Both the position numbers and the translations under genes were made by a program. 64,000 nucleotides of DNA from Erysipelotrichaceae bacterium. Its GTDB lineage: Bacteria > Bacillota_I > Bacilli_A > RFN20 > CAG-826. The stretch is from assembly GCA_034932745.1 (NCBI GenBank), contig JAYFOJ010000003.1:80307-144306 (forward strand), given 5' to 3'. Positions 8,718-63,543 of this stretch are shown here, piece after piece (the first letter of the stretch is position 1; each line of letters opens with the position of its first letter). The notes under the pieces were generated by a model that saw nothing but the letters and a program-made list of their open reading frames with translations, made no database searches and had not been told where the DNA came from.

Positions 8718-11336
8718 ATGCGACGTTTTGCAGCCTATCTAACCTTAGCAATATCTGGCCTTATCATGGTCGGAGTGACTTTTAGTTCAACGCTCGTTCA
8801 AGCCAATAGTAACATTGAGTATTCCGATGGAAGAGCTTTAGTTTATCGTCTTTCCAAAGAAAACGGGGATGAATTAACTCAAGAAGATGAAGGTGCCTCT
8901 AAGGAAATGGCGTCCGTGATGGAAAGCCGTCTTAAAACCGCAAAAGTTAGTAATTATGATATAGTCACCGAAGGTGATGATACACTCAAAATCGTTTTAG
9001 CGCAAAACACCGAAGAAGGATACAACCAAGTAAGAGCTTATTTAGCTTTTGATGGAACATTTGCTTTAGGAACCGACACAAACGTTATGGCTATTGGCGA
9101 TGAATTCATGACTAGTAGCAAAGCCTATGTTTCTTTTATCAAAGATTATCCAACTGTTGTAATTCCGATTAACAAAGATAGTGAAGCATTTAAAGCCGTT
9201 ATTACTGAGGCTAAGAAAATAAACGAAACCGCTAACGGAGAAGGCGATGGTGCCCTAAATGTTAGAAAAGCAGATGATACTAAAAAGACTTATGTCTACT
9301 TAGCGTATAACTTCGTTAAGGACGAAGACTTGATTTCGCAAATGATCGAAGGTAACGCTGATTACGACGCTAAGAAAGCGGAAAAACTTCTCATTAAATT
9401 CGACATTTCACAGATTTGGTTCGACGATACAGAAACAAGCATCGCAACTGCAGTCGAAATCGACTCTGATGGCGATGGAAGTTATTCATATACCGATATT
9501 AAAAATGGTACACAAAAAGCAAATTTTTATTGCAACTTACTAAATGCTGAACACCTAGATTACAAAGTTACTTTTTTGTATGAATATGGTGTTCCTGCTT
9601 ATTTCGAAAACATTATTGATTACAATATGCAAGCCACTGTCGCATGGAGCAGAACATTCATTGCAGCACTAGTCGGCATTGCTATTATCGCCTTATTACT
9701 AGCGGTATTTTACCGTTGGGGTGCCGTCACAATTGGCACATTTGCAATTGGAAGTTGTTACATCGGACTATTGATATCGCTAGTTTTCTCAGCAGAGTTC
9801 AACATTGCTGGAGTGGTGGCGTATCTTGCAGTTGCGATTGCATCGATCGCCTCTGGCGTTATTTACATGACTAAGCTAAAAGAAGAATGCTATCGTGGTC
9901 GAAGCCTCAAAAAAGCTAATTCTGAAGCCTCAAAAAAATCACTTCTTCCAATCGTCGATATCCACGTTGCTCTAATCGTTATTGGGGCGTGTGCTTATTG
10001 GTTAGGCGGGGCTTCTATGGTTACCTTTGCGGCTGTAGTCGTGTTTGGCGGTCTTGCTTCATTACTCCTTAATACTCTAGGGCTAAAAGGAATGATGTGG
10101 TTATTAACAAATACTACTAAGTTTACTGGTAATTACGAAGTAATTGGAGTCGATTCAAATAAAGTTCCTAACTTATTAAATGAAGAAAAACAAAGTTATT
10201 ACGGACCATACGATGGCAAAGATTTCACAAAGAAGAAAAAGCCAGTTGGAATTATTGCCGCTATCTTATTTGTCGGATCTCTAGCCGGAATGATTGCTTT
10301 TGGTGCCATTAATGGAAGCCTATTCAATCACGGTTCTGATAATGCTGAAATGAATTACATTTATTTCGAAACAAAAACCGCGATTGGCGGTATGGATTCA
10401 GCATATGTGCAGGGATTATTAGATAATACTCACGTATACGTGAATGGCACTGATAGCGATGCTACATTGTTGAAATATGACTTACAACAAACCTACACAA
10501 GAACGGATACCGAAGACGATGTAGCAGTAACTTACACATATCTTGTTTGCTCAATCAATTCTAGTTATGAGACATCCCTTGAAGGTTACATCGATTACAA
10601 GGGATTCCATGAAGAAGGCACTTTAGATACATTATTCACATCTTTTATCGAAAACCACGCTGAAGATAGTCAGGCTACTGCCTCATTTAAAGTAGGCGAA
10701 CGCGCAAATATTACTGTCCCAGAATCTAGTTGGGTTATTATTGCAACCGCAGTCGCATCTGGATTCATGTGGATATATTTCATTCTTCGTTATCGTCTAT
10801 CAAGAGGTTTAACATCTCTTATCATTACCGGTATGACTGGTGGAATAGCTCTTGGATTCTTCGTGTTGACGAGAATTATTGCTAGCGAAGCACTTATTTA
10901 TGCCCTTCCATTAATCGTCTTTGTTACGATGGTTATGGAAGTAATCTTCATGAATAAAGATCGCGAGATGGCAAAGGATGATTTTGTAAGAACTAAAGAC
11001 AATTCTTACGCCCATCGAAACGAGATCATGGTAAAAGCAACGGCGCTATCGTTTGCGCCAATCCTTGCTGTGACCGTTTTAGCTGGGTACCTAGCCATTG
11101 ACTTCTTTGGCTTTGGACCAACGGCAACTAGTTTGATTTTTGGTGTAGCGTTGATCGGAATTATAATTGGCGCCTTATTGGTTACAACATTATATGGCCC
11201 AATTTCCCAATTCTTCTTCAAAATCTTTAGTCGCGTTAATATCAACATTAACCGTCCAAAGAAAAAGAAGAAGGCTGAAACAAAATCAAAGACCGCCGAA
11301 CCAGAAGAAGCAGTCTTCATCGGCATCAATGACTAA
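8718..11336 (+). CDS. secDF: Fused protein-export membrane protein SecDF (RND-like)
   Basis: 872 aa. Topology repeats twice: TM1, large extracytoplasmic domain, 5-TM cluster. Loops VIYMTKLKEECYRGRSL and VIFMNKDREMAKDDF resemble the SecD and SecF conserved cytoplasmic loops. Bacillus-like synteny ruvAB-(queA/tgt/yajC missing)-secDF-recJ. Confidence 0.55.
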   Translation: MRRFAAYLTLAISGLIMVGVTFSSTLVQANSNIEYSDGRALVYRLSKENGDELTQEDEGASKEMASVMESRLKTAKVSNYDIVTEGDDTLKIVLAQNTEEGYNQVRAYLAFDGTFALGTDTNVMAIGDEFMTSSKAYVSFIKDYPTVVIPINKDSEAFKAVITEAKKINETANGEGDGALNVRKADDTKKTYVYLAYNFVKDEDLISQMIEGNADYDAKKAEKLLIKFDISQIWFDDTETSIATAVEIDSDGDGSYSYTDIKNGTQKANFYCNLLNAEHLDYKVTFLYEYGVPAYFENIIDYNMQATVAWSRTFIAALVGIAIIALLLAVFYRWGAVTIGTFAIGSCYIGLLISLVFSAEFNIAGVVAYLAVAIASIASGVIYMTKLKEECYRGRSLKKANSEASKKSLLPIVDIHVALIVIGACAYWLGGASMVTFAAVVVFGGLASLLLNTLGLKGMMWLLTNTTKFTGNYEVIGVDSNKVPNLLNEEKQSYYGPYDGKDFTKKKKPVGIIAAILFVGSLAGMIAFGAINGSLFNHGSDNAEMNYIYFETKTAIGGMDSAYVQGLLDNTHVYVNGTDSDATLLKYDLQQTYTRTDTEDDVAVTYTYLVCSINSSYETSLEGYIDYKGFHEEGTLDTLFTSFIENHAEDSQATASFKVGERANITVPESSWVIIATAVASGFMWIYFILRYRLSRGLTSLIITGMTGGIALGFFVLTRIIASEALIYALPLIVFVTMVMEVIFMNKDREMAKDDFVRTKDNSYAHRNEIMVKATALSFAPILAVTVLAGYLAIDFFGFGPTATSLIFGVALIGIIIGALLVTTLYGPISQFFFKIFSRVNININRPKKKKKAETKSKTAEPEEAVFIGIND

Positions 11337-12952: not shown

Positions 12953-13639
12953 ATGAAAAAAGTGATTTTTGTTTTATTACCACTTGCAGTTATTGTTTTA
13001 ACTTCATGCAAATTCGAACTGGCTTCTGATAATGGAAGTTATTCTATTTATCAGCCTAGTTCTACCGAAATCAGTTCTCAAAACATTGTTTATTTTAACG
13101 GTGACACCTTTAACGACGCTGATTATTCGACGAATTATACAATAGATTGTACGAACAAGAATGTTAATAGTGGAGCATATTATCAAGATACCCAATCTCT
13201 TCTTCTTGCAATGAATCAAGTCGCAAGCGATTCAGAATCTAGTTCGATTATCCCTATCATCTCGTCAATCGATCAAATGACTTATGTTGGACGTGGTGCG
13301 GGTGGCGTCTTAATTGGATATCCAATCGAAAGATATAACGGCGTTTTGAAATTCACTTTAGCTAACGGACTAGTTGCAAAAGCAATTAGAGTAATCGCCT
13401 CGCCTAGAGCAAATAACTACACCGATTGGGAAGATGGTGTTGAAAAGCTTGATATCGATGAATGTGCTATCTCGATTAATGGTTCTAATTACATAAAACT
13501 CGATGATACCGCTGACACATTAGCATCTATTGAAGACACGATTTGCAGTGTAATTTTACCTATCGAAGGTTCTAATCAAATTACCATTTCGGCCTATGGA
13601 GAACAGGCGATTATACATTCGATTATTATCTATAATTAA
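12953..13639 (+). CDS. Lipoprotein, unknown function
   Basis: Signal peptide plus lipobox LTSC; 228 aa. Confidence 0.6.
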   Translation: MKKVIFVLLPLAVIVLTSCKFELASDNGSYSIYQPSSTEISSQNIVYFNGDTFNDADYSTNYTIDCTNKNVNSGAYYQDTQSLLLAMNQVASDSESSSIIPIISSIDQMTYVGRGAGGVLIGYPIERYNGVLKFTLANGLVAKAIRVIASPRANNYTDWEDGVEKLDIDECAISINGSNYIKLDDTADTLASIEDTICSVILPIEGSNQITISAYGEQAIIHSIIIYN

Positions 13640-13825: not shown

Positions 13826-15379
13826 ATGAAGAAATCATTAATTGTATTGCCAGTGATGCTACTTCTTCTTGGAGCCTGTGTAGGTCCAAATCCAGGTAGC
13901 TCATCGGAACCAAATCCATCGTCATCCGAACCAACCCCAAGTTCAAGTGAACCAACCCCAAGTTCAAGCGAAGAACCAACTTCTAGCAGTGAGCCAGTAG
14001 TCGATGTTCAAACAATCGCTCAAGTTCGTGCACTATCCGCCGAAGGCGCAGTCACGATCGAAGGCAACGTCGTCGCTAAGAACGAAAAGGGATTTATTCT
14101 CGCAGACGCAACAGGATTTATTCTTGTATTCTTAGGCTCTGCTCCAACCCAAGGTATCGGTGATTTCGTCCGTGTTGCTGGAACTACTTCAATGTATCAA
14201 GGCGCTAGACAGATTACCAACAATCCTCTACCAACAATTACTGCTGGTGAAGGCACTAACCCACACGCTGGTTTAGGTACCGCTGCTCAAATGACAAAAG
14301 CTCAATGGGATGCATTCGATATGGCATCAAATGTGCCAACATACATCACAGGTGTTGCTACAGTATTTGCTAGTGGAACATATTACAACTTCCACTTCGC
14401 CGGAATCGGTGAAACTGGTGCTGCAAGTTTGCCAGGATCAATCGCTTATGCTCCAGCCGAACTAAACTTCGCTGTTGCTGCTAACGTTGATAAAGCATAC
14501 ACTTTCACAGGCCTATTAATCGGCACATCCGTGAGCGGTGGCGCTGTCGTTAGACAAAATATTCTTGTTACCTCATTCGCCCCAGTTCAATCTGGTGGCG
14601 AGTCTTCGTCTGAACCAACTTCAAGCGAACCAGGATCATCTGACTCAAGTAGCGAACCAACTGATGTCATTCACGTTCCAGCCGTTAATCTTTGTGTTGC
14701 TGCTGGCGCTGAAACAAGTTTAAATTTATCTAATGTTAAAATAATTAGCAATGTTTCGGCAAATAGTGTTGCCACTGGTGTTACTTCATCAGGTGTTGTT
14801 ATGATTAATTATTTCGCATGTACTGGTGATTTAAAGACGACTGCTCAAGGAATGACGGCGGGAAATTACTACAATATTGCTGGAAATATAGAGAAAGGTA
14901 CTTCAACGGGTGGAGACTTTGCTCGTTCATATTTATGCATTCCTACAAGCATCACAACTGGAACAAGTGATGGGAAGCAGTACATAATGGATTCTGCTAG
15001 CACAATTGATGTATTTGATAATTCAGCTGTTCCAACTACAGAATACAAGGCTTTTATGGATGGGTTAACTTCAGCTAGTTTAGGAGTTGTATATACATTC
15101 ACGAATGTCATCTTTAAAACTAATACCGCTTCCACTAGTTCTACTAGTGCTGACTATATAACTAGCGAAGCAGATACAACAAATAATACGATTCGAACTG
15201 GCACAGGCTTTTGGAGATTAGCTGTTTATCATTTTGATTACGCTACCGCTCCTACAGTTGGAACCAGATATACTGTAAAAGCAATAATTGTTGGTACAAA
15301 TAAGGATTTCACACAAAATAGCGCTAATCAAATTGTTAGACTATCTCAATATGTCGAAATCACTCCGCAATTAGCATAG
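13826..15379 (+). CDS. Large surface lipoprotein with two Ser/Pro/Glu-rich linkers and two globular domains (the first possibly OB-fold-like)
   Basis: Lipobox LLGAC; linkers SSEPNPSSSEPTPSSSEPTPSSSEEPTSSSEP and SSSEPTSSEPGSSDSSSEPTD; 517 aa. Confidence 0.6.
   Translation: MKKSLIVLPVMLLLLGACVGPNPGSSSEPNPSSSEPTPSSSEPTPSSSEEPTSSSEPVVDVQTIAQVRALSAEGAVTIEGNVVAKNEKGFILADATGFILVFLGSAPTQGIGDFVRVAGTTSMYQGARQITNNPLPTITAGEGTNPHAGLGTAAQMTKAQWDAFDMASNVPTYITGVATVFASGTYYNFHFAGIGETGAASLPGSIAYAPAELNFAVAANVDKAYTFTGLLIGTSVSGGAVVRQNILVTSFAPVQSGGESSSEPTSSEPGSSDSSSEPTDVIHVPAVNLCVAAGAETSLNLSNVKIISNVSANSVATGVTSSGVVMINYFACTGDLKTTAQGMTAGNYYNIAGNIEKGTSTGGDFARSYLCIPTSITTGTSDGKQYIMDSASTIDVFDNSAVPTTEYKAFMDGLTSASLGVVYTFTNVIFKTNTASTSSTSADYITSEADTTNNTIRTGTGFWRLAVYHFDYATAPTVGTRYTVKAIIVGTNKDFTQNSANQIVRLSQYVEITPQLA
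13900..13990 (+). repeat. Tandem 21-nt coding repeat (EPTPSSS units), about 3 copies, within the lipoprotein gene
   Basis: gaaccaaccccaagttcaagt at 13928-13948 and gaaccaaccccaagttcaagc at 13949-13969, plus a degenerate copy upstream. Confidence 0.8.
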
Positions 15380-15436: not shown

Positions 15437-15465
15437 TTTACTAACACTTGTTTTTCACCTATAAT
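15437..15465 (+). promoter_or_regulatory. Promoter
   Basis: TTTACT, 17-nt spacer, TATAAT. Confidence 0.45.
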
Positions 15466-15495
15466 AAATTAAATACAATTGGAGGAATTGTGATA

Positions 15496-16032
15496 ATGAA
15501 AAAAGCTCTTCTTTTATTCCCAGCTTTGTTACTAGTTTTGGGGGCTTGCAATACTAGCAACCCACAAAACAGTGCATCTGAAAGCGGTGGTAATCACGCG
15601 AGTACAAGCGAGACAGAAGGACCTAGTCAGGAACTAGCAAATGTAGCAATCAATAAGGCTATTCCAACTGGCTGGACTTACATCTCAAACAATCCAGAGA
15701 CCTATCCAGATCCAGCATTCTATAGTGTTGGCTCATTGAAATTGAACTTTGCTGGTATGGGAATTCAATCTCCTGCTTTCGGTTCTAGTGCTAAGACCGT
15801 AAAGTTGGTTGGAACATTGAATACAAATACTAAAACAGAAGGCGATGCAACAACAATAGCGGTCGAAGATATGTCTGGAACTATCTTGGCCAGCAAGATG
15901 TTCTCTGCCACTGGCTTAACTACTTTTGATGAAACATTAACCCTTACGACCAAAAAGACTCAATTCAAAATTATCTTAACGGCTAATAAGGGATACAACA
16001 TCGGTCTTGCGACCATTGTCGTCAATAGCTAA
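15496..16032 (+). CDS. Lipoprotein, unknown function
   Basis: Start at MKKALLLFPALLLVLGAC (lipobox) after a GGAGG SD; the upstream part of the ORF-track ORF is unlikely to be coding. Confidence 0.6.
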   Translation: MKKALLLFPALLLVLGACNTSNPQNSASESGGNHASTSETEGPSQELANVAINKAIPTGWTYISNNPETYPDPAFYSVGSLKLNFAGMGIQSPAFGSSAKTVKLVGTLNTNTKTEGDATTIAVEDMSGTILASKMFSATGLTTFDETLTLTTKKTQFKIILTANKGYNIGLATIVVNS

Positions 16033-33352: not shown

Positions 33353-33403
33353 TTAGCATTATTTAAATATCCCTCTATTAGTAATTAGGGGGATTTTTCT
33401 TAT

Positions 33404-33949
33404 ATGGATAAAGAGAAAAACGAAAGATTCAAGCTGGAAGCAAGAGAGCAATACATAAACAAAGGAGTAAAATACGATGGATTGGTCGGAATCAAAAGCC
33501 AACTTGAATGGATTAAAAGACAATTGGAATACGTTTCCTTTTCTGAAAAGTACAAGATTAGATACAATCTAAAGCGTGGAGAAATATACGAATTTGACTG
33601 GGGTTACAACGTCAATGTTGAGTTTTCAAACCGACATTACGGTGTCGTATTAGCAGATTCAAACGAATATAACCCTTTGGTTATTGTGTGCCCATTAAAA
33701 ACAAATAAACATGGTCCTCATCCAAGAAGTGATATCGATTTAGGATATGTCGAAGGCCTAAAAGAGGGCGTTAAAACACTTGCGGTAGTTAATCAGATCC
33801 GTAGCCTAGACAAGATGAGACTATATACGAAAACCGCAATAGCCGAGGACGGCGAAATGGTTCAAATACCAGTCCTACCAATAGATAAAATTAAGCTCAT
33901 TTTAAAAGCTTACGAGTCGATGTTATACGCTACCGGAACCGAAGAATAG
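33404..33949 (+). CDS. MazF/PemK-family endoribonuclease-like toxin with about 55-aa N-terminal extension
   Basis: KRGEIYEFDWG...RHYGVVLADSNEYNPLVIVCPLKTNK...NQIRSLDKMRLY parallels B. subtilis EndoA/MazF; SD AGGGGGA. Confidence 0.7.
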   Translation: MDKEKNERFKLEAREQYINKGVKYDGLVGIKSQLEWIKRQLEYVSFSEKYKIRYNLKRGEIYEFDWGYNVNVEFSNRHYGVVLADSNEYNPLVIVCPLKTNKHGPHPRSDIDLGYVEGLKEGVKTLAVVNQIRSLDKMRLYTKTAIAEDGEMVQIPVLPIDKIKLILKAYESMLYATGTEE

Positions 33950-58065: not shown

Positions 58066-58949
58066 TACTCTTTATTATATAAATATCCGAGTTCGTTGAG
58101 GAGCTTTTCGCTATCGCGCCAGTCTTCTCTTACTTTGACTGTTAAATCGAGAAATATATGTTTATCAACGATTCTTTCGATTTCTCTTCGCGAATTAATG
58201 CCAATTTTTTTAATCATTTGACCTTGTTTGCCAATGACGATTGCTTTTTGTGAATCCTTCTCGACAAAAATCGTCGCTTCAATGGTACATTCTTTTTTCT
58301 CGCATTTATATGACGTCACCTTTACCGCTATACAATGCGGAACTTCTTCTTTAAGTATTTTGAGAATTTTTTCTCTGATTATTTCAGAAATTCTAAAAGT
58401 AATATCGCGATCTGTCACCATTTCTTCTGGGTAGTACGCTGGTCCTTCCGGAAGAATTTCGATAATCTTTTTAATCAATAAGTCGACATTAACTTTTTCT
58501 GTGGCAACCGTTTCAACAAAATGTGCATCTGGAAATTCTTTTAAATACTTCTCCTTAAGTTCAGTGATCTTTGTAATCGTCGTTTGATCGATTTTATTAA
58601 ACACAACAAAAAGAGGACAAGTAACACTCAAGTGTTCTTTAAGATATTCGTCTCCTCTACCATATGGAAGAGAGGCGTCTACCATTAAGATAACGGCGTC
58701 GACATCATGGCTTGCGGAATATGCCATTGAATTCATTTCTGACCCTAGTTTTTTAAATGGTTTGTGAATCCCTGGAGTGTCGACAAAAACGATTTGCACT
58801 CCTTCTTTGTTATAGATACCTTTTATATTATTTCTCGTCGTTTGCGATTTATCTGTAACGATTGAAATTTTGGTATTTAAGATAGCGTTTAGAATAGTAG
58901 ATTTACCGACATTTGGACGACCGATAATGGCCACAAATCCGGATTTCAT
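58065..58949 (-). CDS. era: GTPase Era
   Basis: GRPNVGKST; KH domain; 294 aa. Confidence 0.95.
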   Translation of the reverse strand: MKSGFVAIIGRPNVGKSTILNAILNTKISIVTDKSQTTRNNIKGIYNKEGVQIVFVDTPGIHKPFKKLGSEMNSMAYSASHDVDAVILMVDASLPYGRGDEYLKEHLSVTCPLFVVFNKIDQTTITKITELKEKYLKEFPDAHFVETVATEKVNVDLLIKKIIEILPEGPAYYPEEMVTDRDITFRISEIIREKILKILKEEVPHCIAVKVTSYKCEKKECTIEATIFVEKDSQKAIVIGKQGQMIKKIGINSRREIERIVDKHIFLDLTVKVREDWRDSEKLLNELGYLYNKE

Positions 58950-59812
58950 TTGTTCTCCAAATCGCTAGCATCAAAGGCGAAAGGAAGTAATTCTTTAGCG
59001 TTTGTTTCTTTTACTTTTCCTTTAAGGTTGGCCATCAAAATTGGTGCGTCAGAAGGATATAATTCAGAAATTACCTGTCTACATGCTCCACATGGCGAGC
59101 AAGGTTCATCGGTATCTGCTACAAGAGCAAACATTTCAAAATCTTCTTTCTTTTTTCCATGCATGATGGCGTTATATAAAGCGTTACGTTCGGCGCACAT
59201 ACTAAGAGGATAGGAAGCGTTTTCAACATTTGATCCCAAAAATACTTGCCCATCTTTACATAAGACTGCCGCCCCGACCGCAAAATGTGAATAAGGAGAA
59301 TGTGATAACTTCCTAGCTTCCATTGCTTTTTTGATAAGTTCTTCTTTTTTCATTTGATTTTCCTCATAAGATTTTAAAATCTTTTCTTGCAAAGGGAACA
59401 TTATATGTTCGTCTTCTATTTTCATGTGATCATAACCCAGTAAGTGAAGTAGACCATGGACGAAGAGAAATTGGAACTCTCTTTTTTCACTATGCCCATA
59501 TTCTTTTGCTTGCGCACTAGCTCGATCAATCGATATATAGATATCTCCTAAAACTACTTCAGATTTGCTTCTCAAGAGTTTTGCTCTATTCGAATTTCCA
59601 TCCAAGAAAGCAAACGAGATAACATCGGTTGGGCGATCGACATGACGATACTCCCGATTAATCGAATGAATCGCGATATCGTCTATCAAAGAGACGCTAA
59701 CGATAGGAGAGCATTTGATTTTTAAAGTCAATAGAGTCTGCTCTAAAAGGTCTAAGTAGACTTTTTCATAGACTTCGTATTCTTTTTTAATAGATGTAAA
59801 ATCTAATTCCAT
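58946..59812 (-). CDS. ybeY: Fusion of endoribonuclease YbeY and cytidine deaminase Cdd
   Basis: N-terminal half has HGLLHLLGYDH (YbeY); C-terminal half has CAERNA...PCGACRQ (Cdd); continuous 288-aa ORF. Confidence 0.85.
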   Translation of the reverse strand: MELDFTSIKKEYEVYEKVYLDLLEQTLLTLKIKCSPIVSVSLIDDIAIHSINREYRHVDRPTDVISFAFLDGNSNRAKLLRSKSEVVLGDIYISIDRASAQAKEYGHSEKREFQFLFVHGLLHLLGYDHMKIEDEHIMFPLQEKILKSYEENQMKKEELIKKAMEARKLSHSPYSHFAVGAAVLCKDGQVFLGSNVENASYPLSMCAERNALYNAIMHGKKKEDFEMFALVADTDEPCSPCGACRQVISELYPSDAPILMANLKGKVKETNAKELLPFAFDASDLENK

Positions 59813-59854
59813 AAATCGGGGCTTTATAATACCATAATCGCAACAAAGTGTTAA

Positions 59855-61054
59855 TCATTTTGAAGCCTTGTCCGTAAGGATGTTGATTAATTTTACCTTA
59901 ATAAAACGATGGTTTGCTATCGTTTTTGATAGTTTTAGCATATAACGTATTCCCTTTTTAAGCATTTCTAAGACGAAGAAGTAAAACACTATGTATTGGA
60001 AATTTATAATTCCGTCCATGAGCATTATTAAGATAATTGAAATAATTAAAATGAAGGACTCAAAAACCTTTTGAAAGTACTTGTAGTAACCATATTTGTA
60101 AGAAAGACTATGGAGCTTGAGTAAAAGCATATGCTTTTCTTCATTGTGAGATGATTTTTTCATCTGACTTTCTAACTGTTCTAATTCACTTCTACGTTTT
60201 TCTTCGTGTTTATTTAAAAATGATAAATCGAATAATTCGATGATAAGCACTACCGCGATTAAAAAAACATTGTGGTAATTATTTAATAAAAGAATAAATA
60301 TGATGAAGACGGACATTATAACCGAAGACACACTTGAAGTAATAATCGTGACAAATGACTTTTTGTAATCTTCGAGACGATCGACATATAAATCAAAATC
60401 ATTATTCGTAATGAGTTCTTTACTTTCGCATCTAGAATCGATCGCTTTCAGTATTTTAAATGAACGCGAACGGAAAATTAAATCTAGCGCCACCGCTAAA
60501 CCAAATGTAATAACCGATAAGCCAAACCAGATGTTCTTATCTAAAAACAGTATCCCAACCATCATTGCTATTGATGAAAGCAACTGAAAAATAATTGCCA
60601 ACGAAATACTTCTTTTACTTACAAACTTGTCGTTAAAAATCTTCGTATCATTCTTTTTATAATCGCTAACGACTAAGGCTGTTCTATCCCATTGGTCAAA
60701 AAAATCTTCCTTTCTTTTAGAAATAACACCTTTATTTGAGTCGAGATATGTGACTGATTTCTTTTTAATTTTAACGATTAGAACGGCGTGAAGAGTACAT
60801 TCTTCTTTTATCGAGACAATCGTCGGTTTGTTTTTAACAAATTGCGATAGTTCTTCGATTTTATCAAAACGTAATCCTTTTAAAATAACGCCTTCGTTAA
60901 TAGCGATTTCAGTTATTTCTTTATATGAATATGGTCCATGGTTTTCATCTTGTTTTAAATTAAGATAAGATGAATCTTTGAAAAGATTAGCAAGAAGATT
61001 CTTCAAGGAAGCAAATCCACAATCGTCTTTCGTTAATTGTTTAACATAGTGCAT
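59855..61054 (-). CDS. C39-family cysteine peptidase domain fused to a 5-6 TM domain resembling an ABC-exporter membrane domain, with no ATPase
   Basis: KQLTKDDCGFASLKNLL (catalytic Cys); CTLHAVLIVKI...YLDSNKG (His); TM helices from about aa 150 to the end; start at MHYVKQ after GGGAGG. Confidence 0.7.
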   Translation of the reverse strand: MHYVKQLTKDDCGFASLKNLLANLFKDSSYLNLKQDENHGPYSYKEITEIAINEGVILKGLRFDKIEELSQFVKNKPTIVSIKEECTLHAVLIVKIKKKSVTYLDSNKGVISKRKEDFFDQWDRTALVVSDYKKNDTKIFNDKFVSKRSISLAIIFQLLSSIAMMVGILFLDKNIWFGLSVITFGLAVALDLIFRSRSFKILKAIDSRCESKELITNNDFDLYVDRLEDYKKSFVTIITSSVSSVIMSVFIIFILLLNNYHNVFLIAVVLIIELFDLSFLNKHEEKRRSELEQLESQMKKSSHNEEKHMLLLKLHSLSYKYGYYKYFQKVFESFILIISIILIMLMDGIINFQYIVFYFFVLEMLKKGIRYMLKLSKTIANHRFIKVKLINILTDKASK

Positions 61055-61057
61055 TAA

Positions 61058-61088
61058 AAAACCTCCCATTACTATCTAGGGAGGCTTT
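61058..61088 (-). terminator. Terminator / SD-sequestering hairpin between the two membrane-module genes
   Basis: Minus-strand RNA agccuCCCuagauaguaaugGGAGGuuuuuu; the 3' arm is the SD of the C39 gene. Confidence 0.6.
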
Positions 61089-61097
61089 CATTAATTG

Positions 61098-62336
61098 CTA
61101 ATTTCCAACACTTCTTATTTTTGTTATTCGTGCTCGTTCAATAACCGAGATTGCAATTCCGGAAGCTAAAGATAAGAAGCCTTGCGCAAACGAAGTACTC
61201 GCACCACTTTCAACTTTTACTATGTAATTGTTTTGCAAATTAGCTGGATATAAACGATAAGTTCCAGAAGTAACGCTTACGAGAACTAAGTAAACAAGTC
61301 CGATGACAAATGCGGTAATCGTCGTGTTAAGAAGAGTCTTGGTATCGATTTCGTCGTGAACAAATCTAATTGCAACCCAGAACATGATTGTAGACCACAT
61401 AATGACAGCTATCGATAAAACTACGTCGAATAAGCTTAAAACGGATGTAGTAATTACGTAAACATCGCCATTTCCGATGAAATCACTTAAAGGTTTGATT
61501 GCAAAATATATTGGATTACATAATTCGATTAATTTCCCACTAGAATCGACGACTTTTAAGATTGGTTGTCCGCCAGATTGAATGTTCATGAGCGCAAAAG
61601 ATGCGATTATTATCGCTAATGCTCTTTCAATCGTCTGGAGAATCTTATCTTTTTCAAATTTCATGAATGTTTCAAATATTAAAGAAATGAATACGGTTAA
61701 TGAAATTAATGAAGTCAATATTTCAAGACCGAATCCGATGCCGATAAGCGAAGCATCAAATGACTGATTTGATAGATATGAAACTAAACTTGAAGAAAGA
61801 ATTGAATATAAAATGGTATTCGAAATCAAAACTATGACGCTATTCTTAAGCGATGGATCGGTCTCGTTTTTTAAAGCGGTTCTTGCATTAAGTATTCCTT
61901 TGATCCCAAAAACTATCGTAATGACTATATTAGTAATAATAAAGAGCAAAGAAATCGAAGCCGGTAAATATGCCTGTGCTCCCGTTCCATATGCTCCATT
62001 TTTAATATCGATCCAGATGCTATATAAGAAATAGCTAAAGTATCCAAAATCTCTACTAACCGAGCTATTATTAGCGCTGATTATCAAATTACCATTCAAT
62101 AGTGAAGTCCAAATTAGAAGCATAGCTAAAGAAAGGCTCACGATGATAAGAATTCCTTTGATTTTGATAAAAACAGCTTTGATTTTCTCTTTAGACTTAG
62201 TGAAAGGGTCTTTCAAAGCTTCATCGATTACTTCTGATTCAACGGTTTCGGTTTCGTCTACAGCTAATTCAATTCCGCAGCTTGGACAAAATCTTGCGTT
62301 TTTCGGTGTTGTAGCACCACATTTTGGGCACTTCAT
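61098..62336 (-). CDS. Double-zinc-ribbon (CPKCG...CPSCG) polytopic membrane protein, unknown function
   Basis: N-terminal Cys4 ribbon followed by about 8 hydrophobic helices; 412 aa. Confidence 0.65.
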   Translation of the reverse strand: MKCPKCGATTPKNARFCPSCGIELAVDETETVESEVIDEALKDPFTKSKEKIKAVFIKIKGILIIVSLSLAMLLIWTSLLNGNLIISANNSSVSRDFGYFSYFLYSIWIDIKNGAYGTGAQAYLPASISLLFIITNIVITIVFGIKGILNARTALKNETDPSLKNSVIVLISNTILYSILSSSLVSYLSNQSFDASLIGIGFGLEILTSLISLTVFISLIFETFMKFEKDKILQTIERALAIIIASFALMNIQSGGQPILKVVDSSGKLIELCNPIYFAIKPLSDFIGNGDVYVITTSVLSLFDVVLSIAVIMWSTIMFWVAIRFVHDEIDTKTLLNTTITAFVIGLVYLVLVSVTSGTYRLYPANLQNNYIVKVESGASTSFAQGFLSLASGIAISVIERARITKIRSVGN

Positions 62337-62397: not shown

Positions 62398-63543
62398 TTA
62401 TTTAAACTTCTTCTTAAATTTTTCGAGCCAGGATTCCTTTGGAGAAATTCCACTTTTATAAGCTTCCAGCAATTGCTTTTGCTCTTTTGTTAATGTCGAC
62501 GGAATCATGACTTTGATCTTGAGATATTCATCCCCTGGTTTTTGCGTCTTAAGATCCTTAACGCCACAGCCTTTCATTCGAATCGTTGTTTCTGGTTGTG
62601 TTCCAGCGGGAATGTTCACCATGACATTGCCATAAACCGTTGGGACTTCGGCTTGAACTCCTAAACAAACATCGACAAAATCGATTGGTAATTCAATTTT
62701 GATATCGTTACCATCGCGTTCAAAAAGAGAATGTGGCTTAACGACGATTTCAATGTATAAATCTCCATTAGGACCGCCTTGAACTCCTCTTTCACCCTTA
62801 CCGGATACTCTAATTTGTTGACCATTAGAAATTCCGGCAGGAATATGTACTTTTAAGTCAATTTTAGTCTTAACAAATCCGCTTCCGTGACAATTCTCAC
62901 ATTTATTAGTGATTACTTTTCCAGTGCCACCACAAGTCGGGCAAACTTCTTGCGATTCAATAGCGCCGAACATCGTTCTTTTTTGTACCTTCACAAATCC
63001 ACTTCCACCACAATGTGAGCAGGTATGCACGTCGCTAGGAGTGGCCGCACCAGTACCACCACATTTTGGACAAGAAGAATCGTATGTATAAGGAACACTA
63101 ATATCTCGGCCTAAGATAGAATCCATGAAATCGACCTTGACTCTCATCACGACATCACTGCCACGACGTGGTCCGCTCTTTCGATAACTTCTGTTTGATG
63201 TTCCACCACCAAAGAATGATGAGAAAATATCTCCTAAATCAATTCCTTCCTCACCAAAAGGATTTCCACCAGAACTATTAAATCCACTAAAAGGATTAGC
63301 GCCTGGATTAGCACCAGCTTGATCAAAAGCGGCATGGCCGAATTGATCGTAGGCGGCACGTTTTTGGTCGTCGAAAAGTATATCGTAGGCCTCTTGAACC
63401 TCTTTAAACTTTGCTTCGTTGCCTGTTTCTTTGTTGTCAGGATGGTACTTTTTTGCTAATCGACGGTAGGCGGTTTTAATGTCGTCTTTTGTCGCGTTTT
63501 TATTAATTCCAAGTACCTCATATAAATCTTTTTTGTCCGCCAT
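62398..63543 (-). CDS. dnaJ: Chaperone DnaJ
   Basis: J domain (HPD); G/F region; CxxCxGxG repeats; 381 aa. Confidence 0.95.
   Translation of the reverse strand: MADKKDLYEVLGINKNATKDDIKTAYRRLAKKYHPDNKETGNEAKFKEVQEAYDILFDDQKRAAYDQFGHAAFDQAGANPGANPFSGFNSSGGNPFGEEGIDLGDIFSSFFGGGTSNRSYRKSGPRRGSDVVMRVKVDFMDSILGRDISVPYTYDSSCPKCGGTGAATPSDVHTCSHCGGSGFVKVQKRTMFGAIESQEVCPTCGGTGKVITNKCENCHGSGFVKTKIDLKVHIPAGISNGQQIRVSGKGERGVQGGPNGDLYIEIVVKPHSLFERDGNDIKIELPIDFVDVCLGVQAEVPTVYGNVMVNIPAGTQPETTIRMKGCGVKDLKTQKPGDEYLKIKVMIPSTLTKEQKQLLEAYKSGISPKESWLEKFKKKFK

Follow-up and report, generated by a model that had tools for sequence, protein, structure and literature searches.

Our analysis identifies, directly upstream of the ribosome-maturation genes ybeY/era, a gene whose product is a full-length homologue of the peptidase-containing ABC transporters (PCATs), from which the ATPase and the first coupling helix are missing. 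How proteolysis is coupled to ATP-driven export has been modeled on PCATs. The protein, referred to here as the C39 protein, was found in a 64-kb window (the whole stretch of DNA analysed, 64,000 nucleotides) and belongs to a large, conserved and previously undescribed family, which comprises at least 359 clusters at E ≤ 1e-30 and occurs in uncultured Bacilli of the gut and rumen. Our literature searches returned nothing relevant on an ATPase-less C39 family, on C39 peptidases encoded with ybeY, or on C39 peptidases in RF39, an order of uncultured Bacilli. The reading that we favor, with a rough probability of 0.45, is that the family represents an ATPase-independent derivative of PCATs which would cleave leader peptides at the membrane, possibly export the cargo at the expense of the proton gradient, and be translated at a low level.

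The gene lies on the minus strand at 59855..61054 (399 aa, stop codon included in the coordinates). It is one of two minus-strand ORFs located between dnaJ, which forms the upstream flank (62398..63543, minus strand; assigned by tblastn synteny and by Pfam domains on the homologue in locus L001), and a ybeY-cdd fusion gene (58946..59812, minus strand; Pfam YbeY and dCMP_cyt_deam_1/2), the conserved downstream neighbor. The ORF can be extended to 404 aa from position 61069, but we place the start at the ATG at 61054 because the spacing to the Shine-Dalgarno (SD) sequence, the homologues and the 399-aa NCBI gene model, named ‘cysteine peptidase family C39 domain-containing protein’, all agree. 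The first-pass annotation had recognized a C39 domain in this protein, and our data support it: the double-glycine-type cysteine peptidase domain spans 60650..61054 on the minus strand (residues 1-135, with Gln6, Cys12, His89 and Asp105 as the catalytic set), Pfam detects Peptidase_C39 at residues 7-136 of the 404-aa ORF (E 1.4e-12), and both the Cys of QLTKDDCG and the His of HAVLIV are conserved. Cys12 never varies among 135 relatives, the other three catalytic residues each occur in 99% of them, and the family keeps a cytoplasmic leader peptidase with its catalytic set intact.

The second part of the protein (residues 147-399; 59858..60616, minus strand) is a six-helix membrane domain of the type IV ABC-exporter kind followed by a C-terminal helix, in agreement with the earlier proposal that the ~250 aa after the C39 domain resemble an exporter. 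Structure prediction and structural comparison, which had been suggested as a check of that proposal, gave a confident AlphaFold2 model (pLDDT 95.7, pTM 0.90) with PCAT1 as the top structural match: the best Foldseek matches were all to PCAT1 (E 3e-13, ~463 aligned columns), covering both domains. At the sequence level, a profile built from 135 family members and compared with PDB sequences retrieved PCAT1 (E 7.7e-19) and ComA (E 9.8e-16), the alignment to PCAT1 extending over its residues 16-350, with the C39 domain at one end and TM4 at the other. In a Pfam search of the protein, Peptidase_C39 was the only significant match and ABC_membrane fell below detection. The homology is accompanied by losses. 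The ICL1 coupling helix is gone, the 12 residues equivalent to PCAT1 VLKLPMNFFNSR (253-264) being deleted, and in the AlphaFold2 model the two intracellular loops are mere turns, ICL1 of 6 residues and ICL2 of 3, neither of them helical. The protein ends one helix past TM6, 26 residues after TM6, with no nucleotide-binding domain, and the 42 nt that separate its stop codon from ybeY hold no ATPase-coding remnant. Since no ORF of the 64-kb window combines a Walker A motif with an ABC signature (the single LSGGQ found in the motif scan falls in aspartyl-tRNA synthetase), the earlier observation that no ABC ATPase is encoded with the exporter-like domain stands for the whole window.

Apart from a few shorter fragments, the best 150 representatives of the family measure ~380-415 aa and align end to end, the family length being constant at about 390-405 aa. 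The C39 gene is under selection (dN/dS ~0.10) and evolves 5-7 times faster than its neighbors (dN 0.16-0.34 versus 0.02-0.07). The protein is 56% identical to the copy of a sister species. A one-off allelic replacement as the cause of this low identity is not supported, a third relative having the same graded excess divergence; dS is near saturation, too high for a judgment on recombination. The fast rate is what a scaffold under loose constraint might show as well. The membrane domain is constrained at specific positions, namely E/D191 (82%), R/K195 (76%), D206 (97%), K/R231 (100%), N258 (97%) and E295 (97%), to which are added N262 and Y319; of these, E/D191, N258, N262 and Y319 are polar and lie within the membrane or close to it. 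E/D191 is located within TM2 and aligns with Gln223 of PCAT1, and is therefore specific to the family. Most of the conserved charged residues (D206, K231 and E295) lie in the cytoplasmic helical extension, where their conservation could reflect simple structural salt bridges.

The genomic position of the gene is also stable. In 59 of 66 related loci it is the gene immediately ahead of ybeY, and dnaJ is its immediate upstream neighbor in 26 of 50; the C39 gene is thus an ancestral neighbor of ybeY. The idea that two membrane-protein genes had been inserted into a dnaJ...ybeY block accordingly fails for the C39 gene; only the upstream, zinc-ribbon gene is lineage-specific. The locus gave no PADLOC match and no meaningful PHROG match that would link it to defense or phages.

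A second recurrent feature of the family is an RNA hairpin over the SD sequence of the C39 gene. In the window this stem-loop occupies 61057..61089 on the minus strand (5' arm 61079-61089, loop 61068-61078, 3' arm 61057-61067); the GGGAGG motif (61062-61067) lies within the 3' arm and is followed by a run of six T (61056-61061). The fold has a z-score of -3.3, and the SD is predicted to be paired with a probability of 1.0. The hairpin, which the first-pass annotation had described between the two genes of the window, is conserved in loci L001 and L078, and its pairing with the SD recurs across the family: the predicted SD pairing probability averages 0.80, versus 0.25-0.62 for control genes, and in 77% of loci, versus 0-15% for six neighboring genes, an upstream partner is predicted to pair with the SD at P>0.8. 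Pairing exceeds that of shuffled and slid controls, double changes are found at 7 of 10 pairs, and a covariance model of the hairpin matches almost exclusively the SD position of the C39 gene in 0.98 Mb. These alignments were realigned to the covariance model; RNAalifold returned no structure from a plain MAFFT alignment, in which the arms are out of register. Rfam contains no family for the hairpin. As a possible terminator, the window's copy has a GCCUCCC/GGGAGG stem followed by U6, but also an 11-nt loop and a U-run able to pair with the upstream A-run; a terminator consensus scan did not call the hairpin at 61057-61089. As judged from these comparisons, the feature predicted to be common to the family is SD sequestration, not the termination with regulated read-through that had been suggested. 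We also considered an RNA thermometer and rejected it, the predicted SD pairing probability being the same from 30 to 60°C.

A unifying model based on these data is that of a PCAT derivative working without ATPase. The C39 protein would form a homodimer in the membrane, as its relatives do, bind a leader of the double-glycine type on the cytoplasmic side, hold the cargo in an inward-facing cavity, and cut the leader off; the cargo would then be freed or moved across the membrane without ATP. The likeliest source of energy would be the proton gradient, used through the conserved membrane-embedded carboxylate E/D191 and its charged neighbors. The stable hairpin would keep translation of the C39 protein low. 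In the window's genus, the zinc-ribbon gene has its stop codon 8 nt ahead of the hairpin, and ribosomes terminating there could therefore open it, a form of translational coupling. The zinc-ribbon protein would be a genus-specific addition and not part of the device, and the substrate gene would be located elsewhere. Transport, dimerization and proton coupling are steps that we infer, and the conserved carboxylates (E/D191 in TM2, D206 and E295) are no more than suggestive of proton-driven transport. ATP-free transport by this fold has precedents, with proton coupling shown by experiment: SbmA/BacA run on protons and rely on conserved glutamates (PMC8442886, PMC13316013), and MsbA deprived of its ATPase domain mediates ΔpH-dependent efflux (PMC4979069).

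A search for double-glycine leaders, which had been proposed as a check, yielded no candidate substrate: strict and relaxed patterns, applied to small and large ORFs of the window and of 76 related loci, revealed no ORF with such a leader next to the C39 gene, and the small ORFs that flank the C39 gene in locus L006 have no leader. The scan returned only noise and lipoprotein signal peptides.

The alternative that best survives these data is that the protein is a processing protease only, the former exporter domain serving as a dimeric anchor and substrate docking site, and the cleaved substrate, cytoplasmic or close to the membrane, being exported by another route or never. The loss of the ATPase and of the coupling helices, the fast evolution of the membrane domain and the lack of an exported-peptide gene adjoining the C39 gene are all in line with this, and the housekeeping position, with an apparent single copy per locus, suggests a role in maturation rather than a bacteriocin system. 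In addition, the membrane domain of PCAT1 and NukT strongly stimulates proteolysis (PMC6363468), a role that does not depend on transport. However, one transmembrane helix would be sufficient for an anchor, for which this fold is superfluous, and yet the six helices and their lengths are kept across at least 359 clusters, and several polar positions within or close to the membrane are conserved (E/D191, N258, N262 and Y319). We regard a protease without transport as possible, with the odds against it.

Much less probable, in our judgment, is a split ABC transporter, in which the C39 protein would be the peptidase and membrane subunit and a separate, distant gene would provide the ATPase. Our ATPase scans extended 8 kb to either side of each C39 gene and over one window of 64 kb, which leaves room for such a gene farther away. 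To our knowledge, type IV exporters nearly always carry fused ATPase domains, which counts against this arrangement. The search for an orphan nucleotide-binding domain, another check suggested beforehand, found none in the window and, among 76 related loci, no ATPase gene consistently within ±8 kb of the C39 gene; tandem pairs of ATPase-like ORFs occur ~5-6 kb away in only five of them. The deletion of the ICL1 coupling-helix segment and the reduction of ICL2 to a 3-residue turn also speak against an ATPase acting in trans. For SbmA, orphan ATPases were excluded on the ground that coupling helices are lacking (PMC8442886), and the loss in the C39 protein supports the same argument here.

The first-pass annotation had seen in the two ORFs a two-gene membrane module, and a functional pair for signaling or membrane insertion has to be weighed. 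The upstream gene (61098..62336, minus strand, 412 aa) encodes a zinc ribbon at residues 2-23 (nt 62265-62336) followed by ~8 predicted TM helices; the ribbon is single (CPKC...CPSC; Pfam Zn_Ribbon_1) and not the double Cys4 ribbon first proposed. The genes are adjacent on the same strand, the pair is kept in three sister species, purifying selection on the zinc-ribbon gene is strong (dN/dS 0.03-0.04, with 91-96% identity in sister species), and the hairpin 8 nt past its stop codon could couple translation of the two. However, searches of 5.8 billion proteins, with the full-length protein and again without the ribbon, to keep zinc-ribbon words from crowding out other candidates, recovered near-identical homologues only. 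The zinc-ribbon gene is present in none of the 70 genome-collection loci with a C39 gene, was found by tblastn only in L001-L003 of 76 loci, and gives way to dnaJ directly upstream of the C39 gene in the 26 of 50 loci mentioned above. A single-sequence AlphaFold2 model of the protein was uninformative (pLDDT 44). The annotation itself had named a failure of the two genes to co-occur elsewhere as grounds for abandoning the module, and since this is what we observed, we rejected it as a general system. From its distribution, the zinc-ribbon gene is a genus-specific orphan and no general partner of the C39 gene, and a functional pair is highly improbable.

Finally, although the architecture taken on its own resembles a truncation, we give practically no credence to the C39 gene being a decaying remnant of a PCAT gene that lost its 3' half, a pseudogene reading that the first-pass annotation had left to profile searches and that is refuted by a length of ~395 aa kept across hundreds of clusters (at least 359), the conserved catalytic set (Cys12 invariant, the other three residues at 99%), a dN/dS of ~0.1, the confident fold prediction and the lack of any ATPase remnant in the 42-nt gap to ybeY.

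An ATPase-independent PCAT derivative would matter in several respects. In this family, nature has run an experiment: across hundreds of lineages the ATPase and the helix that docks it were lost, and selection continued to act on protease and translocation domain. If the C39 protein transports, a peptide exporter of the PCAT fold runs without ATP, and the SbmA and MsbA-MD findings are extended to an exporter in its native form; otherwise, the family is a new class of membrane-tethered double-glycine proteases. Either way, it points to a processed peptide or protein, probably of importance to a large group of uncultured gut and rumen Bacilli. The recurrent SD-sequestering hairpin is a simple, testable regulatory element, and annotators have reason not to read such C39 genes as truncated ABC transporters. 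A broader and rather unlikely extension, which we put forward as speculation, is that these proteins form an ancient natural class of ATP-independent leader-processing exporters, a PCAT turned into a proton-coupled or passive secondary transporter that kept its protease, with a housekeeping role in maturation and export of a double-glycine-type substrate in a whole clade of host-associated Bacilli with reduced genomes. If true, ABC exporters and secondary transporters would be bridged a second time, independently of SbmA/BacA, and for the first time by proteins with an attached enzyme domain.

Among known systems, the closest are the PCAT/AMS proteins (PCAT1 of Clostridium thermocellum, ComA of Streptococcus, LagD of Lactococcus). 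The C39 catalytic residues and their spacing are identical, the six-helix type IV exporter domain is common to both, and sequence homology spans both domains. However, PCAT/AMS proteins carry a nucleotide-binding domain (Walker A/B, LSGGQ) and coupling helices, which the C39 family lacks, and the membrane domain of the family is ~60 aa shorter. PCATs have a substrate gene in their cluster, whereas no double-glycine substrate gene adjoins the C39 gene, which sits in a housekeeping block by ybeY and not in a bacteriocin or competence cluster. The C39-like domains (CLD) of HlyB-type RTX exporters are the reverse case, having lost the catalytic Cys and kept the ATPase. The sole NCBIfam match, NF045998 (the Mbov_0121 family of Mycoplasma), covers residues 10-179, that is the C39 domain and the first TM helix, at 37 bits against a cut-off of 500; the C39 protein is thus no member of this family, whose proteins are 673 aa long and contain an ATPase.

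Two other systems share the absence of an ATPase. SbmA/BacA (SLiPT) consist of an ABC-exporter-like helical domain of ~400 aa with neither ATPase nor coupling helices (PMC8442886), as is the case here, and conserved carboxylates are present in both. However, SbmA has eight helices and no peptidase domain and imports peptides, whereas the C39 family descends from PCAT exporters; by sequence, the C39 protein is not a member of SbmA_BacA, Peptidase_C39 alone being significant in Pfam. The engineered MsbA-MD and LmrA-MD are, like the C39 family, type IV membrane domains minus their ATPase. These were made in the laboratory by truncating drug and lipid exporters, whereas the C39 family is natural, ancient and widely conserved, with remodeled intracellular loops and an attached protease.

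The genes from dnaJ to rpoD all lie on the minus strand in the ORF map of the window, in the order dnaJ (62398–63543), the zinc-ribbon gene encoding a 412-aa membrane protein with an N-terminal ribbon (61098–62336), the C39 gene (59855–61054), a ybeY-cdd fusion (58946–59812), era, recO, glyS, dnaG and rpoD. The mechanical ORF start of the C39 gene is 61069, but its true start is the ATG at 61054, located 7 nt past a GGGAGG; homologues start at the equivalent position and the NCBI protein model has 399 aa. Pfam recognizes Peptidase_C39 (E 1.4e-12) and returns no match for the C-terminal 250 residues. A word-indexed search found 12 full-length homologues (390–404 aa), and an exhaustive search of 1.84 billion cluster representatives with the family profile gave 4248 matches, 359 at E≤1e-30 and 805 at E≤1e-10, the best 150 of which are nearly all 380–415 aa long and aligned end to end. 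Across 135 aligned family members, Cys12 never varies, and Gln6, His89 and Asp105 reach 99% conservation each; together they make up the oxyanion and catalytic set of C39 peptidases and are spaced as in peptidase-containing ABC transporters (PCATs). Rather than a truncation, the C39 protein is a full-length protein belonging to a large family. A pseudogene is excluded by the constant length of the family and its retained catalytic residues.

An AlphaFold2 model built with the same alignment (pLDDT 95.7, pTM 0.90) comprises a C39 domain (residues 1–132), six long helices (147–169, 177–210, 217–258, 260–300, 304–347 and 352–373) and a terminal helix. In a Foldseek search of the PDB, ranks 1–13 are all PCAT1 structures (best E 3e-13, about 463 aligned columns in the best match, across both domains), followed by HlyB, isolated C39 domains and the type IV exporters TAP, BmrA, TmrAB and McjD. 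At the sequence level, the family profile aligns with PCAT1 over the peptidase and on to TM4 (E 7.7e-19), and with ComA (E 9.8e-16); the membrane part is, as modeled, an ABC-exporter domain. Our data thus demonstrate a conserved family of PCAT homologues in which protease and exporter domain are intact and the coupling loops remodelled: the 12 residues corresponding to PCAT1 253–264 (VLKLPMNFFNSR), the ICL1 coupling-helix segment, are missing in the profile-PCAT1 alignment, and ICL2 is a mere three-residue turn in the model. The ATPase domain is absent from the protein and none is encoded nearby. A motif scan found no ABC ATPase in the 64-kb window, whose sole LSGGQ falls within aspartyl-tRNA synthetase, and the ±8 kb flanks of related loci hold no consistent ATPase gene. 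The family, the fold and sequence match to PCAT1 and the absence of an ATPase therefore bear out the architecture proposed in the first-pass annotation, a C39 peptidase joined to an exporter-type membrane domain with no ATPase.

The genomic part of that annotation fared differently. It had described a two-gene module inserted into the dnaJ...ybeY-era-recO block. Scanning a single genome for each GTDB species yielded 70 loci with the C39 gene, nearly all in MAGs of uncultured Bacilli from rumen, gut and faeces. In 59 of the 66 that extend far enough, the start of ybeY is no more than 150 nt past the C39 stop codon, followed by (cdd)-era-recO-glyS-dnaG, which contradicts an insertion; the C39 gene is a resident of the ybeY neighbourhood. 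Its upstream neighbour is dnaJ in 26/50 loci and otherwise deoC (plus rpsU in locus L004) or a YqfD homologue. In the Bacillus subtilis order, rpsU ... yqfC-yqfD-phoH-pgpH-ybeY-dgkA-cdd-era-recO, its place is held by phoH and pgpH. Some of these uncultured Bacilli MAGs carry, next to the locus, homologues of YqfD and SpoIIE, both sporulation proteins (L049 1455–2390, L069 7035–7958, L073 7022–7951 and L053 6181–7740). ybeY, encoding a 16S rRNA endoribonuclease, and cdd, encoding cytidine deaminase, form a single ORF of 281–289 aa in the window and about a dozen related species (L015, L028, L036, L039, L047, L048, L052, L054, L059, L064 and L065), and are separate but adjacent in the remaining loci.

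The zinc-ribbon protein was detected only in the three closest relatives (L001–L003, L078), with no further homologues even when the ribbon was removed from the query, so that the two-gene module is not general. Pfam finds a single Zn_Ribbon_1 (CPKC...CPSC) in place of the double Cys4 ribbon described before. Identity of 91–96% between sister species and a dN/dS of 0.03–0.04 indicate a real gene, although one inserted behind dnaJ and ahead of the C39 gene in this genus only. A distant full-length family member (L076 8001–9227, plus strand), aligned by hhalign with 99.9% probability and 20% identity, is flanked by a gyrA/parC-like gene and leuS in a bin labelled Azospirillum sp. CAG:239, which means either a different lineage or context or a mis-binned contig. 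In one MAG, a family ORF of just 243 aa (L064 311–1042, plus strand), ~500 nt ahead of ybeY, may result from a frameshift, pseudogenization or an assembly error.

Upstream of the C39 gene, RNA folding predicts a stem-loop of 11 pairs with an 11-nt loop (61057–61089, minus strand), more stable than 200/200 shuffles (z = –3.3), in which the Shine-Dalgarno (SD) sequence GGGAGG is paired and whose stem is followed by six T. A terminator consensus scan did not call it and Rfam has no matching family. The stem-loop is kept in L001 and L078, and an equivalent anti-SD/SD hairpin, predicted to sequester the SD and to be stable up to 60 °C, recurs in most family members. The C39 SD pairs upstream with a mean probability of 0.80 (>0.8 in 77% of loci), versus 0.25–0.62 (>0.8 in 0–15% of loci) for dnaJ, era, recO, glyS, dnaG and ybeY. 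Across 0.98 Mb, a covariance model built from 33 family hairpins matched almost nowhere but at this position. In the model-based alignment, 72% of cells are paired versus 68% in shuffles (observed value reached by 0/500) and 46–56% when partners are slid, with double changes in 7/10 pairs; because such an alignment leans to structure, this support is moderate. We read the hairpin as a putative constitutive translational brake. In the genus of the window it begins 8 nt past the zinc-ribbon stop codon, which could allow a ribosome terminating there to unfold it. In the subgroup L037, L042–L045 and L071, SD and hairpin are both absent and a conserved CTTATATATCG motif lies about 40 nt upstream of the start, suggesting another mode of translation initiation or regulation. 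The one other good match of the covariance model in the window (30 bits, 33362–33402, plus strand) directly precedes ORF 33404–33949, a 181-aa PemK/MazF-like toxin, which fits a role for these hairpins in limiting proteins that may be harmful.

No other gene from dnaK to dnaG evolves nearly as fast as the C39 gene. Its product shares 56–58% identity between the window and relatives, versus 85–98% for dnaJ, the zinc-ribbon gene, ybeY, era, glyS and dnaG, and 72% between the two sister species, versus 93–96% for neighbours. Its dN is 5–7 times that of neighbours; a dN/dS of about 0.10–0.12 nevertheless points to purifying selection, the most divergent part being the second half of the C39 domain (0.27). 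dS is also raised (1.57 versus 0.77, window versus L001 and L078), near saturation and thus no basis for judging recombination. Candidate causes are low expression, diversifying co-evolution with a substrate, or recombination. Immediately downstream, an SD-like sequence is absent before ybeY in 58/65 loci, and window 59813–59854 (minus strand) holds a near-consensus extended –10 promoter, TTAACA-17-TGnTATTAT, ending 13 nt before the ybeY ATG, suggesting that the ybeY mRNA begins right past the C39 stop codon with little or no leader. Elsewhere on the plus strand, Pfam matches none of an 872-aa ORF (8718–11336), a 228-aa ORF (12953–13639) and two ORFs with lipoprotein-type signal peptides (…LLLGA↓C and …LVLGA↓C; 13826–15379 and 15448–16032).

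A model for this protein is that a homodimer would recognize a double-glycine-type leader and cleave it at the cytoplasmic face, the cargo then crossing via the cavity with no ATP input, the proton gradient being the most plausible driving force. SbmA/BacA is ABC-exporter-like, without coupling helices, and proton-driven via conserved glutamates (PMC8442886, PMC13316013), and MsbA minus its ATPase domain shows delta-pH-dependent efflux (PMC4979069). The main rival is that the exporter domain no longer transports and just anchors and activates the protease, as membrane-domain association boosts proteolysis by PCAT1 and NukT (PMC6363468). However, conserved membrane-domain residues speak against a mere anchor, without proving transport: E/D191 (82%, within TM2, where PCAT1 has Gln223), R/K195 (76%), D206 (97%), K/R231 (100%), N258 (97%), N262 (80%) and E295 (97%), with Y319 and K329 also standing out. 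No substrate gene was found close to the C39 gene in the window or related loci.

Literature searches found no published description of such a protein. NCBI annotation gives it a generic name only, and no NCBIfam model covers it (best score 37 bits versus a cut-off of 500). It should interest transporter and RiPP/bacteriocin specialists, mainly as a natural ATPase-less PCAT widespread in an uncultured clade. It lacks two defining features of PCATs, the ATPase and the coupling helices, and should therefore not be classified among the ABC transporters; by sequence it is no member of the SLiPTs. HlyB-type C39-like domains have lost the Cys and kept the ATPase, whereas the present family is the inverse.
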